From: a virus
Length of the DNA: 64,000 nucleotides
Strand: one strand, 5' to 3'
Virus record (IMG/VR): IMGVR_UViG_3300045988_175036
Span: 52,290-116,289 of that record
Of the stretch, positions 15,509 to 38,966 are shown piece after piece. The notes under the pieces were generated by a model. The model did no database searches, was not told where the DNA came from, and saw only the letters and a list, made by a program, of their open reading frames with translations. Position 1 is the first letter of the stretch. Each line of letters begins with the position of its first letter. The translations under genes and the position numbers were made by a program.

Positions 15509-16411
15509 TTAGTTCATGCTGTCACGTAGATCGCGCAGGTCAAGAAGAGCTAAGTATAGAAGGTCTACTTGATCTTCAGTAACTTCCGAAAGCTTCATCT
15601 TTCGGCCAAAAATCATCTCAACCTTCTTTGACATTGTGCGAACAATATCCGTCTTATCCTCGTCCGTTTGTGCCTTATTTACAAGCGAAGTCCAAATTTC
15701 ACGAGCTTCGCTCATGGTGGCGTTGAAGTCGTGCTTTTCATTGGTAATAATTGGAGCATTGTCAACAACACGTGCGCCATTCTTTTCTTCCATATCAATT
15801 GCATCAGCCAAAGCTTTTTCAAACTCATGGAAGCCAAAGGGAATACGTGGCGATAAAAAACGGAAACGACTTCCTGCTGTAACCGTCGGAGTAGAGCGAG
15901 TTTGTATCCAGCGCTCACTTTCACCCTTCTCATTCCATGTCTGCGTGATAATCGCGATGACATCGACGAGGCTATTGACGATTTTTAAACAACGGTTATT
16001 AAGGTCAGGCTTCGCACTAATAAGCTTGCCCTCCTCGTCATAAGTCTCTTTCAAGTGACACGTCATAAGAAGGCCATACCGTATCATAGTAATTTTGCGG
16101 AGGGAATTTTCAAATTCTTTCGACAGTTGAGCATATCCCCCGCCATAGGGGATGTCCCCAATCTTAGATACTCCATTTTGCGCACAAACAAATTGTTCAC
16201 ACAAATCAAACAATATGCCAATAGTATCAATGCAAATCGTCTGATATAGTTCTTTTGCTTGCGGTTTTTCAAGCTGTCGAAGAACAAGTTTCCACTCGCT
16301 CCAAGTAGTAACTGGCTGAACCATCGCATTGCCTTGAGCGTTGGTTCCAATCTCAGTCGCTATGATGAGAGCTTTGTCGCTTTGGCAACAAAATTCTGTT
16401 TTACCTATCTT
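15509..16411 (-). CDS. AAA_24 / Sak4-like RecA-fold ATPase, exon 2
   Basis: Begins K-IGKTEF, the second half of a Walker A motif, directly after an in-frame TAA. The remainder resembles phage AAA_24 ATPases. Confidence 0.65.
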   Translation of the reverse strand, partial: KIGKTEFCCQSDKALIIATEIGTNAQGNAMVQPVTTWSEWKLVLRQLEKPQAKELYQTICIDTIGILFDLCEQFVCAQNGVSKIGDIPYGGGYAQLSKEFENSLRKITMIRYGLLMTCHLKETYDEEGKLISAKPDLNNRCLKIVNSLVDVIAIITQTWNEKGESERWIQTRSTPTVTAGSRFRFLSPRIPFGFHEFEKALADAIDMEEKNGARVVDNAPIITNEKHDFNATMSEAREIWTSLVNKAQTDEDKTDIVRTMSKKVEMIFGRKMKLSEVTEDQVDLLYLALLDLRDLRDSMN

Positions 16412-16663
16412 CAATTATGTTATCGTAAGGGCTTTTTATCCCTTACTTCTTATACTTCATTTCGTATAAGTTCAGCATATCTTTTCACCCGCTATTGTGC
16501 GGGGACGCGGCCTCTTGGATGGATTATATCTTTTCACCATCTATGCGTTGCGGCTGGGCTGACTTTACCAGTCCTTCGCCTCTGATTAGCGTCTCAGCTT
16601 TCCAGTTTTTCTCCGCGTTTCTCTATTGATTGTTACCAATCAACCGCCCCAGATTATGGTCGA
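16412..16663 (-). ncRNA. candidate group I-like self-splicing intron (252 nt, no ORF)
   Basis: GC-enriched and ORF-free. 5' exon ends in U, intron ends in G. P1 candidate CGCCU/GGGCG with a U.G pair; P10 candidate AUCU/AGAU. GNRA-capped hairpin UUGAUUG-GUAA-CAAUCAA plus several 5-7 bp stems. Confidence 0.55.
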
Positions 16664-16747
16664 AGGCGCGCCTGCCAAGAGCAGATATTTGCCACGAAGG
16701 TCCCTCGAAATAACATTTGGTTGTAAAGAAAGAATATCAATACCCAT
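16664..16747 (-). CDS. AAA_24 / Sak4-like ATPase, exon 1 (28 codons)
   Basis: ATG 16747 with an AGGGGG RBS. Encodes MGIDILSLQPNVISRDLRGKYLLLAGAP. Joined to exon 2 it gives the Walker A motif GAPKIGKT. Confidence 0.6.
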
Positions 16748-34631: not shown

Positions 34632-34957
34632 GCTATTTGGCGCACGACAGAAACTTACCGTGAATGTCTGAAGTGGCCTCAGTTGGGAAGGCTTACCAGC
34701 TTTATAAAAACCGAGCAATCAAGACAAAGTATTAGCTACACTTTGAGGAAGCAAAGAGGTGGGCGGGAGTCGGCTCTCCCGTAGCTAGAAACCGATTACA
34801 GGGTTAAGCGCAAGACGCTTAGGCCAAGCTATGATGTCATATTTCCGGGGCAATTTCGGTAGTATGACGGAGCTTTTGTCAAGGGTTAGGAGATTTCCAC
34901 AGATTGCCTAGGGGTCTACCTCGTAGGAGACTACCGAAAGAAAATCTCCATCTTTAT
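34632..34957 (+). ncRNA. ORF-free GC-enriched structured spacer A
   Basis: Hairpins GGGAG-tcgg-CTCCC and TAAGCG-caaga-CGCTTA. Long-range pair TCGGTAGT (34856) with ACTACCGA (34931). Downstream of the 34434 promoter. Confidence 0.4.
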
Positions 34958-35052
34958 CCTGCCTTAGCACAACGGTAGTGCAACCGGTTTATGCCCGGCA
35001 TACGGCTCCAGATTAGGGCGCGATCTCGGTTCGAATCCGAGGGGCAGGACCA
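34958..35052 (+). tRNA. atypical 95-nt tRNA-like gene; anticodon loop UUUAUGC (UAU, Ile-type) with a 25-nt extra arm and encoded CCA
   Basis: Acceptor CCTGCCT/GGGCAGG, D arm GCAC-AACGGTA-GTGC, anticodon stem CCGG/CCGG, T arm CTCGG-TTCGAAT-CCGAG. The extra region does not fit class I or class II rules. Confidence 0.5.
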
Positions 35053-35255
35053 AAGGTATCCAAACTACCTTAATCGTTTGGTGAGGACTCAAGTTACTAA
35101 AGTTAGGTCAGCTTGACATCCAACAGAGACGACCTACACAGGTGAGACAGGTGAGAATGACGGCTTAGTCCTTTCTTGAATAAACAGAACCTGACCCGTT
35201 TTGGCGCCAAGGGTGAACGCTGCTTGAAGGTAAAGAAAGGCAATAAATTTTATAT
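35053..35255 (+). ncRNA. ORF-free structured spacer B
   Basis: No ORF; GC-enriched; lies between two tRNA(-like) genes. Confidence 0.35.
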
Positions 35256-35332
35256 GGGAGCATAGCTCAGTTGGTTAGAGCGCATGACTGTTAATCATGA
35301 TGTCGAAGGTTCAAGTCCTTCTGTTCCCGCCA
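35256..35332 (+). tRNA. tRNA-Asn (GUU)
   Basis: GGGAGCA TA GCTC AGTTGGTTA GAGC G CATGA CTGTTAA TCATG ATGTC GAAGG TTCAAGT CCTTC TGTTCCC G CCA. Confidence 0.9.
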
Positions 35333-35617
35333 AATGATGGCGAGTAGTGCGAATAGAAAAGATAAGAACGAAATAGTACCTTTTATGGTGGATAAACCTA
35401 TTATTCACTTATTGAATCTATTGGAGTCACGCACGGCTCCGCTTGCTATCATTACCAACGGATAAAACTTGTTGTGAGCAAACTTACAAGTTACCTTTTT
35501 GACCTCACAAACAACTATGCAAGCATATCTTACGCGCAAACTAGATATGACTCCCTCTGGGAGAAAGGTGATTGCGCGGCCGGTTAGCGCTCCTGTCTAA
35601 GTTCAAAGCGCGTTATA
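35333..35617 (+). ncRNA. ORF-free structured spacer C
   Basis: No ORF; GC-enriched; lies between tRNA genes. Confidence 0.35.
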
Positions 35618-35684
35618 TCCCCTTTTAGTGTAATGGTTAGCACAGCAATTGAGGGCAAGAGTGGTTCGATCCCACAGAGGGGAG
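35618..35684 (+). tRNA. degenerate tRNA-like element lacking an anticodon arm (67 nt, no CCA)
   Basis: Acceptor TCCCCTT/GAGGGGA, D arm GTGT-AATGGTTA-GCAC, T arm GTGG-TTCGATC-CCAC. Only about 16 nt (containing CAATTG) sit where 23 are expected. Confidence 0.3.
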
Positions 35685-35764
35685 TCAAAGATAAAATTAT
35701 CTTTTCTACACGGAGAAACTATTGATTCCGAAAACTATCCAATACAAATTGAAAGGAAATTTTT

Positions 35765-36025
35765 ATGGAAAAGATTTTTGAACTCTGTAAAGAGCGTGAT
35801 ATCAGGTGTTATTTCAGTTATTGGAAGCTCGACGATTCTATTCATTTTGCTTTCACTAGAACATTTGCTGGCCAAGATTGTAAATTTATACAGGTCGTTC
35901 CGATCAAGGATATTAATAATAATTCTCATGTTATCGGACAGTACATTGCAGAACTTATTGAAGACAAGCTGTCGGATGAGAATTGTAGAAAAATGATTCT
36001 CGACAGAATTGAAAAGCTTCTTTGA
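35765..36025 (+). CDS. hypothetical protein (86 aa) inside the RNA island
   Basis: ORF track; AT-rich like the other coding DNA; AAAGGA RBS. Confidence 0.4.
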   Translation: MEKIFELCKERDIRCYFSYWKLDDSIHFAFTRTFAGQDCKFIQVVPIKDINNNSHVIGQYIAELIEDKLSDENCRKMILDRIEKLL

Positions 36026-36097
36026 AATCTATTTTTATAATAAGAAAAATAGGTACACTACTTCTTTTATGTTTCGTAGTAGCTGGATTTATAAATA

Positions 36098-36175
36098 TCC
36101 TCTATTGGTGTAATGGTAGCACACTTCCCGTCAAGGAAGAGGGGTCGGTTCGATTCGATATCCTGCATAGAGGAC
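36098..36175 (+). tRNA. degenerate tRNA-like element
   Basis: Perfect acceptor TCCTCTA/TAGAGGA and D arm GTG-TAATGGTAG-CAC. Anticodon stem CTTCC/GGAAG has a 6-nt loop CGTCAA. The T arm is disrupted (GTCGG-TTCGATT-CGATATCCTGCA). Confidence 0.3.
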
Positions 36176-36361
36176 GGCTTGACACAGCCGGAGTGTTATC
36201 TCTGGCATACGGATTAGCGTATGCAAAGCATTTGTCTTCGGATGGTAAAATGCGAGAGAAGTCATCCCCTTGAACTTCTCACTACATACATCCCCAGCGG
36301 TTGTTATGCTGAGACCGATGGCGCGACGGTCGTTTATAATATCGCGCCATTTGTCTAAAAT
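36176..36361 (+). ncRNA. ORF-free structured spacer D
   Basis: Hairpins GCATACG-gattag-CGTATGC (36205-36224) and ATGGCGCGA-N15-TCGCGCCAT (36318-36350). 36185-36217 resembles 34981-35016. Confidence 0.35.
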
Positions 36362-36397
36362 GCGGGTGTAGTATAATGGTTATTATGTCTGCCTTCC

Positions 36398-36861
36398 TTC
36401 TAAACTTAATGCGTTAGATATATATGGAGCAATTATCAACTCAATTTAAAGGCGATGTGACTGAACTTTTAGTTAGTGCATATTTACTAAAATTAGGTTA
36501 TGTAGTATCTAAACCTTTAACCCAAGATAGTAAATATGATTTAATTGTAGATATTAACCATAAGTTAATTCGTATTCAGGTTAAAACTGCAAGACTAAAT
36601 GATCGGACCATTGGCAAAAGTATTAAGTTTAATTGTAGAAGTACCACAAACAATGTAAGAGAATGCAAACAGCGATATTATTCGCCAGAAGATGTAGATT
36701 ATTTTGCAACATATTGGGATAATGTAGTATATTTAATCCCAGTTACTGAATGTAGTGCTGAGAAAATTTTATGGATAGATAAGCCTACATATAAAAACAG
36801 TTGTTTTGCAAATGATTATCTGGCAGAGGAGGTATTACAACGCATTTAAGCATTGGAAGGG
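36398..36861 (+). mobile_element. homing-endonuclease cassette / atypical tRNA intron
   Basis: The ORF fills 426 of 464 nt. The ends form a helix: 36405-36415 with 36839-36850, and 36393-36397 with 36855-36859. Confidence 0.6.
36424..36849 (+). CDS. PD-(D/E)XK homing endonuclease, I-Ssp6803I-like
   Basis: FKGDVTELLVSAYLLKLGYVVSKPLTQDSKYDLIVDINHKLIRIQVKTAR matches the intron-associated PD-(D/E)XK endonuclease family pattern. Confidence 0.7.
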   Translation: MEQLSTQFKGDVTELLVSAYLLKLGYVVSKPLTQDSKYDLIVDINHKLIRIQVKTARLNDRTIGKSIKFNCRSTTNNVRECKQRYYSPEDVDYFATYWDNVVYLIPVTECSAEKILWIDKPTYKNSCFANDYLAEEVLQRI

Positions 36862-36984
36862 AAGCAGAAGATGGGGCTTCGATTGCCCTCACTCGCTCCA
36901 CCGCCCCATGGGAAGTTTGCCTCCAATAAGTCTCATGACCACTACTAGATTGCACTAGTTGACTGAATAAAGGTGGTTTTATAT

Positions 36985-37061
36985 GCACTTGTAGCTCAGT
37001 TGGTAGTAGCAATTGCCTTTTAAGCAATGGGTCGGGCATTCGAGTTGCCCCAAGTGCACCA
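36985..37061 (+). tRNA. tRNA-Lys (UUU)
   Basis: GCACTTG TA GCTC AGTTGGTA GTAGC..., anticodon arm CAATTGC CTTTTAA GCAATGG, T arm GGGCA TTCGAGT TGCCC, then CAAGTGC A CCA. Confidence 0.9.
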
Positions 37062-37141
37062 CTTTATTTGGAATCAATAGCTTGTCCACCTTTGGGCGAC
37101 CCGTAATAGCCGGACATTTGAAAATTTCTTCTCGTAAATGT

Positions 37142-37170
37142 TTGAAATTTTTCTGATTTTTTGATATAAT
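37142..37170 (+). promoter_or_regulatory. sigma-A type promoter, conserved cassette
   Basis: TTGAAA, 17 nt, TGaTATAAT, then ATTTACAGAAAGTGAGGG. Confidence 0.65.
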
Positions 37171-37196
37171 ATTTACAGAAAGTGAGGGAAACGAAA

Positions 37197-37373
37197 ATGG
37201 AAACTGAAACTCCGTGGAAGCCCGAAGTAAAGAAAATGTCTCCCGAACAACTTGAGAAGTGGACGGCGCTCCGTAAAAAGTGTCAAGTCTTTCCTTCTCG
37301 AAAACCATATTCGCGCAAAATCAAACATAAAAATCGAGAAAAAGAAAAAGAAAAAGAAGAAAACGAAATTTGA
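37197..37373 (+). CDS. small, highly basic protein (58 aa)
   Basis: ORF track frame; ATG 37197 after GAGGGA. Encodes METETPWKPEVKKMSPEQLEKW...KEKEKEENEI. Confidence 0.35.
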   Translation: METETPWKPEVKKMSPEQLEKWTALRKKCQVFPSRKPYSRKIKHKNREKEKEKEENEI

Positions 37374-37398
37374 AAAACTTCTAAAATTTTGGTATAAT
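37370..37398 (+). promoter_or_regulatory. sigma-A type promoter, conserved cassette (drives 1.6 kb of non-coding RNA)
   Basis: TTGAAA, 17 nt, TGgTATAAT, then ATTTATACAAGATGAGAG. Confidence 0.65.
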
Positions 37399-37489
37399 AT
37401 TTATACAAGATGAGAGAGAGAGGAACTGGTCTTTTCCTTTCTACCAGTTCCTCTCTCAGAAAGTCCTAATGTGGCTTACTTGAAAACTA

Positions 37490-37563
37490 TCCGATGTAGT
37501 TCAACTGGTTAGAACACCGCATTGATAAAGCGGAGCTGTCGGTTTGAGATCCGGCCTTCGGGT
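37490..37563 (+). tRNA. tRNA-Ile (GAU)-like, irregular
   Basis: D arm GTTC-AACTGGTTA-GAAC and anticodon loop TTGATAA. There is an A.A pair at 31:39, an 8-nt T-loop (GTCGG-TTTGAGAT-CCGGC), a U.U mismatch in the acceptor stem, and no CCA. Confidence 0.45.
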
Positions 37564-37959
37564 AGTTGGTAAGCAGTCCCAAGCCTGCATAAACACAGAG
37601 GGAGACTAATAGCGGTATTACAGTGGCCAATGTAATATCCAAAATTTCGAGACAGGCAAGTCTTCAGGCAGTAGATGTCTGATAAAACAACGACGGCGAA
37701 GGAGTCGCGACCTTCGGAGGAGCCGAGATAAACCTACGGGGAACCGCCATCGGAGAAAAGGAATTTATTAGTCAAATCAGTTTCGTGGTTCTGGGACTCA
37801 AAACCACCTCGCGCAGTTCTTACGGCGCAATATAAATAGGATGGGCGCTATCTGACATGGCGTGACGTTCAGAAGTTTCGATGCGTGGGCTTACCTATAA
37901 AACTCATGCTGGGTCTTTGGAGCCTTTTACCTCCTGTGTGAAACAAAAGGCTCGTATAT
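37564..37959 (+). ncRNA. ORF-free structured spacer G (about 395 nt)
   Basis: Hairpins ATTACA-N8-TGTAAT, CGAAGG-N8-CCTTCG, GTGGTT-N11-AACCAC and GAGCCTTTT-N17-AAAAGGCTC (37918-37952). Confidence 0.4.
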
Positions 37960-38045
37960 GCAAGTGTGGTGGAAATGGCATACACATCTGATTCAAGCTC
38001 AGATGCCCACTGGGATTAAGGGTTCGACTCCCTTCACTTGTACCA
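37960..38045 (+). tRNA. tRNA-Leu (CAA), class II
   Basis: GCAAGTG ... TCTGA TTCAAGC TCAGA, 14-nt variable arm TGCCCACTGGGATT, T arm AAGGG TTCGACT CCCTT, then CACTTGT A CCA. Confidence 0.85.
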
Positions 38046-38966
38046 GAAATTCGTGTCCCGCTAAGCTCTATAATGATTGTGGCGAGGCTAAGGCGTTGGC
38101 AGATAAGGGGCAACCGCACGAATTAGAATATTGCGCAGGTCGTCTAACAGTAGGACGCCAGACTCATTATCTGGAGACAACGTGCAACTCGTTCGTGCGC
38201 AACCATTCGCTTTGGCGAAACTCTCGTAGAGGATGGATTTTACGGTTCAACTACCACCGGCTTCCGAGCCCGACCGCTATGGCTGACAACGAAGATATGT
38301 GGCTTTGTCATTTGCCGAGAGTATAATAAATAAAAACGAAAGCAAACCGTTTATTTGTTCCTTGAAAATAAAATATCTTAGAACTCGATGACAAACATTC
38401 TGTGACTAGGAATGTCGAGGCGTTTTGAAAAGGGCGGCAGACAACGAACAAGGATACTTGTGGATACTGACCGGTGCGCGTGACGTGAGTTGCGTGCCAG
38501 AGAGGATGGACTCCCAACCCTAAGAGGCGGCATCGAGATTAACGCGAGTAAAGGTAGGACGCGCGTCGCTGGCGTAATAGAGGCTTTCAAGATAATTGAG
38601 AGCTGAATCCTAATCTCCCTTAGTTGGTGACTGTGGGTAAATCATTTGATTAGGAAATAACCACAAGCCAGTTTGTTGTGAAGCGAAGAAATTCGTGTAT
38701 AAGACGTGTATGTGGCCTCTGAGTAGCCAAAGACAAGCACAATAATGATTATTGATAATAAAAATCAAGAACTTGCTGAATGGCTGGTGAAAGGTTCTGG
38801 TAATCAATCCAGAAGAGACTACGCGCACGAAGGTGCGGCTATGGGAAGTATGCGCGGGACGCTGCGTATGCTCAGCCCCATGGTGCTCTTGACTGAATAT
38901 ACTTGAAGTTAGTTTTCGGTAGGTTGAAGAACCCATAGATATTTTATTTTCAGGGAACAAATCCCT
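38046..38966 (+). ncRNA. large ORF-free structured region H (about 920 nt), candidate giant ncRNA(s)
   Basis: GC-enriched; only short overlapping track ORFs on both strands. Long-range pair 38048-38055 with 38117-38124. GAAATTCGTGT is repeated at 38046 and 38688. Ends at the 38967 terminator. Confidence 0.45.

Follow-up and report, generated by a model that had tools for sequence, protein, structure and literature searches.

Three introns (I1-I3) of the orf142 gene of Staphylococcus phage Twort, which belong to subgroup IA2, reportedly self-splice in experiments, and one of them is said to be represented by a crystal structure. A helix located between P7 and P3' (P7.1) is a hallmark of subgroup IA as a whole. 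That group I introns occupy conserved motifs in the replication and structural genes of phages is a classical observation. Splicing has been documented for the DNA polymerase introns of the Bacillus phages Bastille and W.Ph. (PMC11878797), which are related to phage Megatron (Bastille-type; Herelleviridae, Bastillevirinae), and it is the Megatron sequence that was used for comparison in this study. The IA2 introns of phages have been described as heterogeneous, with a P7 helix that is rarely predicted automatically (PMC11878797). In prophages of the Bacillus cereus group and in Staphylococcus phages, tape-measure, terminase and other genes are interrupted by group I introns (PMC2504315; PMC11934314). 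Judging from their description, these published introns resemble the element analysed here: they are small members of subgroups IA1 and IA2 that sit in the best-conserved motifs of phage genes, some of them with homing-endonuclease ORFs and others without, and a single gene often contains several. A full-text literature search did not retrieve a Sak4-like ATPase gene as an intron host, and a search for the literal core sequences of our element returned unrelated primer matches only.

The DNA analysed in this study (referred to below as the window) is a stretch of 64,000 nt from the IMG/VR virus record IMGVR_UViG_3300045988_175036. According to a preliminary description of this DNA, a group I-like intron of 252 nt splits the Walker A motif of a gene encoding an AAA_24/Sak4-like ATPase. 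This proposal is supported by the exon junction, by a covarying fold and by homology to proven introns. We estimate at about 90% the probability that the insert is an ORF-less, self-splicing group I intron, whose removal from the transcript of the window copy would restore the ATPase reading frame. The gene and the intron are located on the minus strand, and the coordinates of all their parts are therefore given in descending order.

Exon 1 of the ATPase gene (16747-16664) starts with an ATG at 16747, reads MGIDILSLQPNVISRDLRGKYLLLAGAP and comprises 28 codons, the last of which encode ...RGKYLLLAGAP; its terminal nucleotide is a U at 16664. The start codon is preceded by a Shine-Dalgarno-like GGGGG run (16760-16756), and relatives contain AGGAGG 8 nt upstream of their ATG. 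This agrees with the upstream exon of 28 codons and the ribosome-binding run that had been proposed, with the reservation that the ORF as listed (16747-16640) has 35 codons for amino acids, since its frame extends for seven codons into the insert before a stop is reached. The intron (16663-16412; 252 nt) begins at 16663 and ends with a G at 16412. Exon 2 (16411-15509) opens with KIGKTEF, runs to the stop codon of the gene and, together with exon 1, encodes a protein of 328 aa. As had been noted previously, the 301-aa ORF listed at 16414-15509 starts with TTG immediately downstream of an in-frame TAA. It opens TTG-AAG-ATA-GGT-AAA-ACA, where TTG corresponds to the last three nucleotides of the insert. 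Stop codons are present in all three frames of the insert, in keeping with its description as ORF-free. The claim that it is enriched in GC holds in relation to the window (44.4% vs 38.7%), but not in relation to the host gene, since the GC content of exon 2 is 43.0%.

Joining nucleotide 16664 to 16411 produces GCG CCT|AAG ATA GGT AAA ACA and thereby restores a Walker A motif, GAPKIGKT. In its joined form, the protein of 328 aa matches the Pfam AAA_24 profile (PF13479; E = 1.9e-31) over positions 4-195 of 195, with an alignment that spans the junction, as well as PHROG 124 (Sak4-like ssDNA annealing protein; E = 1.9e-43); both matches support the junction. The full-length PF13479 match, including the Walker A signature GxxxxGK[ST], was obtained with the joined protein only. 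Since the AAA_24 match crosses the junction, and since shuffled sequence folds less well than the insert (z = -3.3 for the insert), this split pattern is not a product of chance.

A search of a protein collection identified intron-less homologs of 328 aa (87-88% identity), which read LLLAGAPKIGKT. They have the same N-terminus as exon 1, and the context of the junction (...RGKYLLLAGAPKIGKT...) is exactly as predicted. The same search returned truncated gene calls of 301 aa and 271 aa originating from intron-bearing relatives. The DNA encoding the 328-aa homologs is contiguous over the junction, with GCTCCT|AAGATT in one genome (L123) and GCTCCG|AAGATA in three others (L124-126). The intron-less relatives have a common gene order, comprising a YorF-like gene, the AAA_24 gene, a 180-aa ORF and DnaB. 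Alignment with intron-less homologs, which had been suggested earlier as a way of verifying the intron, thus revealed the predicted junction at the level of both protein and DNA.

Metagenome contigs were also scanned for the exact predicted ligated sequence GGCGCGCCTAAGATAGGTAAAAC. One contig matched (L132; OKXB01000134.1, 89.9 kb). Its identity to the window is 98.5% from 18085 down to 16664, after which its sequence resumes directly at 16411. L132 is therefore a natural intron-less allele, the breakpoints of which coincide exactly with the splice sites proposed. Reading CCT|AAG, its junction is compatible with a U at position -1 together with a G at the intron end, but not with a C at -1 and a U at that end, which is the sole alternative boundary that would yield an identical protein. 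The boundaries of the 252-nt insert are thus exactly those first proposed, with the intron-less proteins, the contiguous DNA and the L132 contig in agreement.

These data bear on the possibility that the insert does not splice at all, being for instance a small mobile element or a spacer between genes, and that the gene is truly split into one part encoding a 35-aa peptide and another encoding a 301-aa protein starting from the TTG at 16414. This is how public gene callers annotate the locus (P0006 and P0007 are 301-aa products), and no intron is found there by Rfam. However, such a division would cut the P-loop between GAP and KIGKT, so that neither piece has a Walker A motif. Moreover, the insert has a covarying group I-type fold that is homologous to proven introns, and its boundaries obey the rules of a U at -1, a terminal G, P1, P9.0 and P10. 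We regard a truly split gene as very improbable.

The pairings expected at the splice sites of a group I intron are present. In P1, exon CGCCU (16668-16664) is paired with the internal guide GGGCG (16649-16645), and U16664 forms with G16649 the U.G wobble at the 5' splice site that the preliminary description had pointed out. The P10 guide AUCU (16654-16651), also recognised at that time, is complementary to AGAU in exon 2 (16410-16407) and is separated from the P1 guide by a single unpaired G. The same arrangement of P1 was found in several members of the intron family described below, including the second intron of the ATPase gene of L077 (a relative 97.8% identical to the window) and the third ATPase-gene intron, carried by L132. 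The second intron of L077 contains an analogous P10 pairing (AAAG/CUUU). The U at -1 and the 3'-terminal G hold in the three ATPase-gene introns for which intron-less alleles or the continuity of the protein define the junctions.

The 3' end of the intron is set by P9.0, in which AA (16472-16471) pairs with UU (16414-16413). Across the family, the two bases that follow GCUG covary with the two bases that precede the terminal G (AA/UU, AG/CU, GA/UC and AC/GU). This was the case in 31 of 43 distinct members, compared with 23.6 on average, and 28 at most, for permuted partners in 2000 trials. The terminal G of the window intron is thereby placed at 16412. When 5' splice sites were predicted automatically from an open frame and P1/P10 pairing, tens to hundreds of solutions were obtained per locus, and junctions defined by homologs were used instead, with only clear single cases of the prediction being cited; for the window it preferred an incorrect site located 14 nt further upstream, where P1 would be rich in G.U pairs and LAGAP would be deleted.

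The insert has the core topology of a group I intron, with P3-P8 and P4-P6 domains, a P3/P7 pseudoknot, A-rich J4/5 and J5/4, and helices in the canonical order. The hairpin capped by GUAA (a GNRA loop), which had been noticed previously, constitutes P2 (16644-16625), located in a region that is variable among the members of the family. The long-range ACGCGG/CCGCGU pairing, also reported previously, corresponds to P3 (16618-16613 with 16510-16505); it covaries, and it encloses P4, P5, P6, P6a, the 5' strand of P7, and P7.1. Helix P4 consists of 4 bp (CUGG/UCAG; 16605-16602 with 16585-16582) and is separated by AA/AA internal loops (J4/5 and J5/4) from P5 (AGC/GCU; 16599-16597 with 16590-16588). 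These are followed by P6 (GGC/GCC; 16580-16578 with 16554-16552), P6a (16574-16568 with 16562-16556) and P7.1 (GAUGG/CCAUC; 16541-16537 with 16522-16518). The P8 hairpin (CCCGC/GCGGG) occupies positions 16503-16488. The 3' domain contains P9 (16470-16464 with 16455-16449), P9.1 (16446-16440 with 16431-16425) and, before the terminal G, the conserved GAUAACA (16424-16418). Our first guess for P6 (GCG/CGC) was replaced by GGC/GCC once the family alignment had been consulted.

Covariation was examined in two alignments. In the first of these (A2; 26 compact family members) compensatory changes were observed in every helix drawn. As many as 91.6% of the cells were paired, compared with 68.0% after shuffling (none of 500 shuffles reached the observed value), and 38 of 52 pairs had changes on both sides; slid-register controls gave 30-45%. 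The second alignment (A3) comprised 42 matches aligned to the covariance model, a fitting which biases it towards the structure; here 93.2% of the cells were paired (64.7% after shuffling) and 41 of 47 pairs were double-changed, while slid-register controls gave 31-46%. Helices P9 and P9.1 were paired in 97-100% of cases, with many double changes. P7.1 was paired in 100%, with four of its five pairs covarying, and many members add an inner hairpin to it. The weakest helix was P8 (64-70% of cells paired in A2 and A3), which results from variation in its length and register across the family. Compensatory changes in P8 were nevertheless found in the close relatives L127 and L129, and in some relatives an endonuclease ORF is located at P8. 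Another observation made in A2 was that the sequence of J3/4 (UUAAG vs A/G-AAAA) co-varies with the identity of the P6 pairs (ACC/GGG vs GGY/GCC or GUG/CAC). An explanation may lie in the J3/4-P6 base triples of group I introns, or simply in the descent of subfamilies.

The P7 pseudoknot, presumed to bind guanosine, could not be placed in the preliminary description. From position and flanks, its probable strands are GCAUA (16546-16542) and UAUGC (16479-16475). The 5' strand is preceded by J6/7 (GCAAC; 16551-16547), whereas the 3' strand follows J8/7 (UGAAAAGA; 16487-16480) and is itself followed by UGAAC. The position and the flanks match those of the Twort and Megatron introns, which contain GACUA(U)/(A)UAGUC at this site, and the difference between these introns and that of the window therefore amounts to two compensatory base-pair changes between families. 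In the window P7, a C-G pair lies beside the presumed G-binding G-C pair, where the near-universal consensus is A-U. Within the family P7 is invariant, which is partly due to the fact that members were selected with strings from both of its strands. Another candidate for P7, GUCAGC/GCUGA(A)C, was rejected because it lacks conservation in the homologous insert of L001, a human gut phage. The S-like sequence AAGAUAUAAUCC (16533-16522) lies in the loop and the 3' strand of P7.1, and its resemblance to an S element is by chance only.

A search with the Rfam group I models, which had also been suggested for verification, did not detect the insert. The Intron_gpI model of Rfam 15 (RF00028) gave no match on a 286-nt slice of the window even at E = 10, and none in L001; nor was a group I match found in two permissive Rfam scans around the insert or in a whole-window scan at the gathering threshold. 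The weak microRNA and snoRNA hits near the insert were either chance matches or were caused by a hairpin located downstream of the ATPase gene (see below). In the same run, RF00028 detected the Twort orf142 introns, used as a positive control, with scores of 101, 97 and 64 bits, which indicates that the negative result is specific to the family of the window intron. The RF00028 consensus has a P4 of 6 bp (UGCGGG) and a P7 of AGACUA/UAGUCU, compared with a P4 of 4 bp and CGCAUA/UAUGCU in this family. A match to RF00028 is a matter of detection and does not define a group I intron biochemically.

It was solely this negative Rfam result that led us to consider other ways in which the insert might be skipped, namely a group II intron, translational bypassing or excision at the DNA level; nothing specific speaks for any of them. 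Group II introns are very much longer than the 252 nt of the insert, and the group II families of Rfam gave no match here. Conversely, the insert is far longer than known bypass gaps; the gap in gene 60 of T4 measures about 50 nt. The insert is also devoid of terminal repeats, and its covarying fold matches the topology of group I introns. These mechanisms are, in our opinion, extremely unlikely.

The relationship with introns of proven activity became apparent when structure was taken into account. A sequence-only search of Twort with the family profile (nhmmer) gave matches that were collinear but not significant (E = 1.2 and 4.2). A covariance model built only from the family of the window intron (R1) aligned over its full length with Twort introns 2 (35.6 bits, E about 1e-10) and 3 (24.6 bits, E about 2.5e-7), and partially with intron 1. 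It also recognised both halves of the I-BasI DNA polymerase intron of Megatron (27.6 and 50.7 bits; E about 6e-8 and 4.5e-15).

The order of elements in the Megatron intron is the same as in that of the window: P3, an A-rich J3/4, P4-P5 with AA/AA loops, P6-P6a, J6/7 ending with CAAC, P7, a P7.1 hairpin, a conserved CCACGAG before P3', and P8. They are followed by J8/7 (GAAGAUA in Megatron and AAAGAUA in the window intron), then UGA(A/C)C in both, P9 (GAAA-type loop), GAAG, P9.1 (AUAAA-rich loop) and finally CGAUAACA, which precedes the terminal G. In the 3' domain the identity between the window intron and the Bastille-type intron reaches about 80%. The Megatron intron differs in having a canonical P7 (GACUA/UAGUC), a P4 of 6 bp and an HNH endonuclease ORF in P8, whereas the window intron has GCAUA/UAUGC, a P4 of 4 bp, no ORF, and a different host gene. 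With the Twort introns it shares J6/7 (GCAAC), the UGAAC that follows P7', hairpins P9 and P9.1, and ...UAACAUAAUUG as its ending. Both also contain extra helices between P7 and P3', a feature of subgroup IA; in Twort these are P7.1 and P7.2 (an insert of 31 nt), accompanied by a P7 of GACUAU/AUAGUC, whereas the window intron has a single P7.1. On the basis of the detection of the Twort and Megatron introns by R1, the shared layout and the P7.1 helix, we have filed the element as a subgroup IA-type (IA2/IA3-like) group I intron with an unusual P7, whose closest counterparts are the Bastille and Twort introns.

If the window intron acts as these relatives do, its transcribed RNA would fold into a core composed of the P3-P8 and P4-P6 domains, joined by the P3/P7 pseudoknot. 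A free guanosine bound in P7 would attack the phosphate that follows U16664, held in P1 by its U.G wobble with the internal guide. The same site would next be occupied by the terminal G16412, placed by P9.0 and by the P10 pairing with exon 2. Ligation of the exons would then create GCGCCU-AAGAUAGG, and thus a complete 328-aa ATPase with GAPKIGKT. Both this chemistry and the splicing of the window copy are inferred.

The element might, on the other hand, be a group I intron by descent, the window copy of which splices poorly or no longer splices, with the ATPase gene being a pseudogene or expressed at a very low level. The absence of a homing-endonuclease ORF, the non-canonical P7 and the short P4 are compatible with such a relic, as is the fact that some phage introns are spliced only in infected cells and not in vitro (PMC11878797). 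However, the window copy obtained the highest score (220 bits) among the 42 matches of the family covariance model in the 34 sources searched, and the exons are still open, with 87-88% identity to the intron-less homologs. In addition, the Walker A intron has been kept at the same site in at least four diverged relatives, and copies in L127, L129 and L077 carry compensatory changes in P8 and P9.1. A poorly splicing relic is therefore improbable, and an active self-splicing intron is the explanation which we prefer.

The window intron belongs to a widely distributed family. In a BLASTN comparison with phage genomes, the last 75 nt or so of the insert were about 80% identical to sequences in phages of Staphylococcus, Bacillus, Clostridium, Clostridioides, Enterocloster, Arcanobacterium and Alicyclobacillus, as well as in uncultured gut phages. 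In the phage collection these matches lie in unannotated gaps or under annotated terminase, tape-measure and capsid CDSs. A scan of IMG/VR with a core 14-mer, followed by BLAST, revealed at least 40 loci, in which the match often extends over insert positions 44-252. Related inserts were found in about 76 phage records and at least 40 virome loci. The genes split by members of the family encode terminase, tape-measure and capsid proteins, DNA polymerase and the Sak4-like ATPase. In L001, for example, a homologous insert divides the large terminase gene just 5' of the Walker B motif. The window contains a single copy, with no others detected by either BLAST or the covariance model.

Some virome contigs carry paired introns of this family (L001 3517-4608, L027 3346-3934, L049 8798-10035 and L002 3859-4478). 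In L001 the compact terminase intron is accompanied, about 1 kb downstream, by a second intron with an HNH/DUF7487 ORF, and in L027 two compact copies are separated by only about 150 nt.

It is conceivable, although we put this forward tentatively and consider it rather doubtful, that the window intron and its relatives constitute a separately undescribed compact subclass of phage group IA introns, defined by a P7 of GCAUA/UAUGC, a P4 of 4 bp and a single P7.1, which is invisible to RF00028 and abundant in phages of the gut and of Firmicutes. If this were true, the annotation of many genes for terminase, tape-measure, capsid, polymerase and Sak4 proteins would be wrong, presenting them as split or as containing inserts that are read through. 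As regards the locus described here, the annotation should be that of an intact ATPase gene encoding 328 aa, and not that of a 301-aa protein lacking half of its P-loop plus an orphan ORF of 35 aa. Truncated products of this kind (301 aa and 271 aa) are already present in public gene calls. Since the Rfam model used by most pipelines overlooks this common phage family of group I introns, genes in many genomes of Firmicutes and gut phages have probably been mis-called. The wider interest of our observations lies only in this widespread family with a variant P7 that is missed by RF00028; the understanding of how group I introns work is unchanged by the window intron.

The Sak4-like gene of this phage lineage can be regarded as a small natural experiment in intron mobility, with three conserved sites that are filled or vacant in near-identical genomes, i.e. 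a presence/absence polymorphism among close relatives. Besides the same 252-nt intron, L077 contains a 1239-nt intron (L077 11389-12627) at the Walker B codons (IDTVGI|LYD). It belongs to the same family and carries an ORF for a 330-aa LAGLIDADG_3 protein in the P7.1 loop. The corresponding site is vacant in the window, between 16215 and 16214. L132 is without the Walker A intron and has a third intron of the family, of about 1.09 kb and with an ORF, at KIVNGL|VD (L132 2297-3383), which corresponds to window position 15966 or thereabouts. The larger members of the family carry ORFs of the LAGLIDADG_3, LAGLIDADG, HNH or I-HmuI-like type in the P7.1 or P8 loops. The window copy, with no homing-endonuclease ORF of its own, probably spreads or persists passively by recombination, or by means of endonucleases supplied in trans by related introns.

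The exon-1 flank GGCAGGCGCGCCT (16676-16664) is common to all intron-containing alleles, whereas the intron-less alleles compared (L123-L126) mostly have GGCCGGCGCTCCG or GCTGGCGCTCCT at this place. L132 is an intron-less allele, yet its exon-1 flank is of the intron type. This pattern fits either a constraint imposed by P1 pairing or co-conversion during homing.

Several other features of the window are also worth recording. Just 3' of the ATPase stop codon (15508-15454, minus strand) there is a long, perfectly paired hairpin (UUCAGAGGCAUAGU-GUAAG-ACUAUGCCUCUGAA) with a U-rich run after it, which looks like an intrinsic terminator, as far as can be judged from the sequence. It was this hairpin that gave rise to spurious microRNA hits in the permissive Rfam scan. 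The plus strand contains an array of six tRNAs (34958-38201), with Rfam tRNA matches at 34958, 35256, 36985, 37490, 37960 and 38133. Directly 5' of this array there is a drum RNA (RF02958, 56.9 bits; 34826-34953, plus strand). The tRNA cluster is adjoined by a full-length ROOL RNA (Rfam RF03087, 285.9 bits; 38360-38953, plus strand), a large structured RNA of unknown function.
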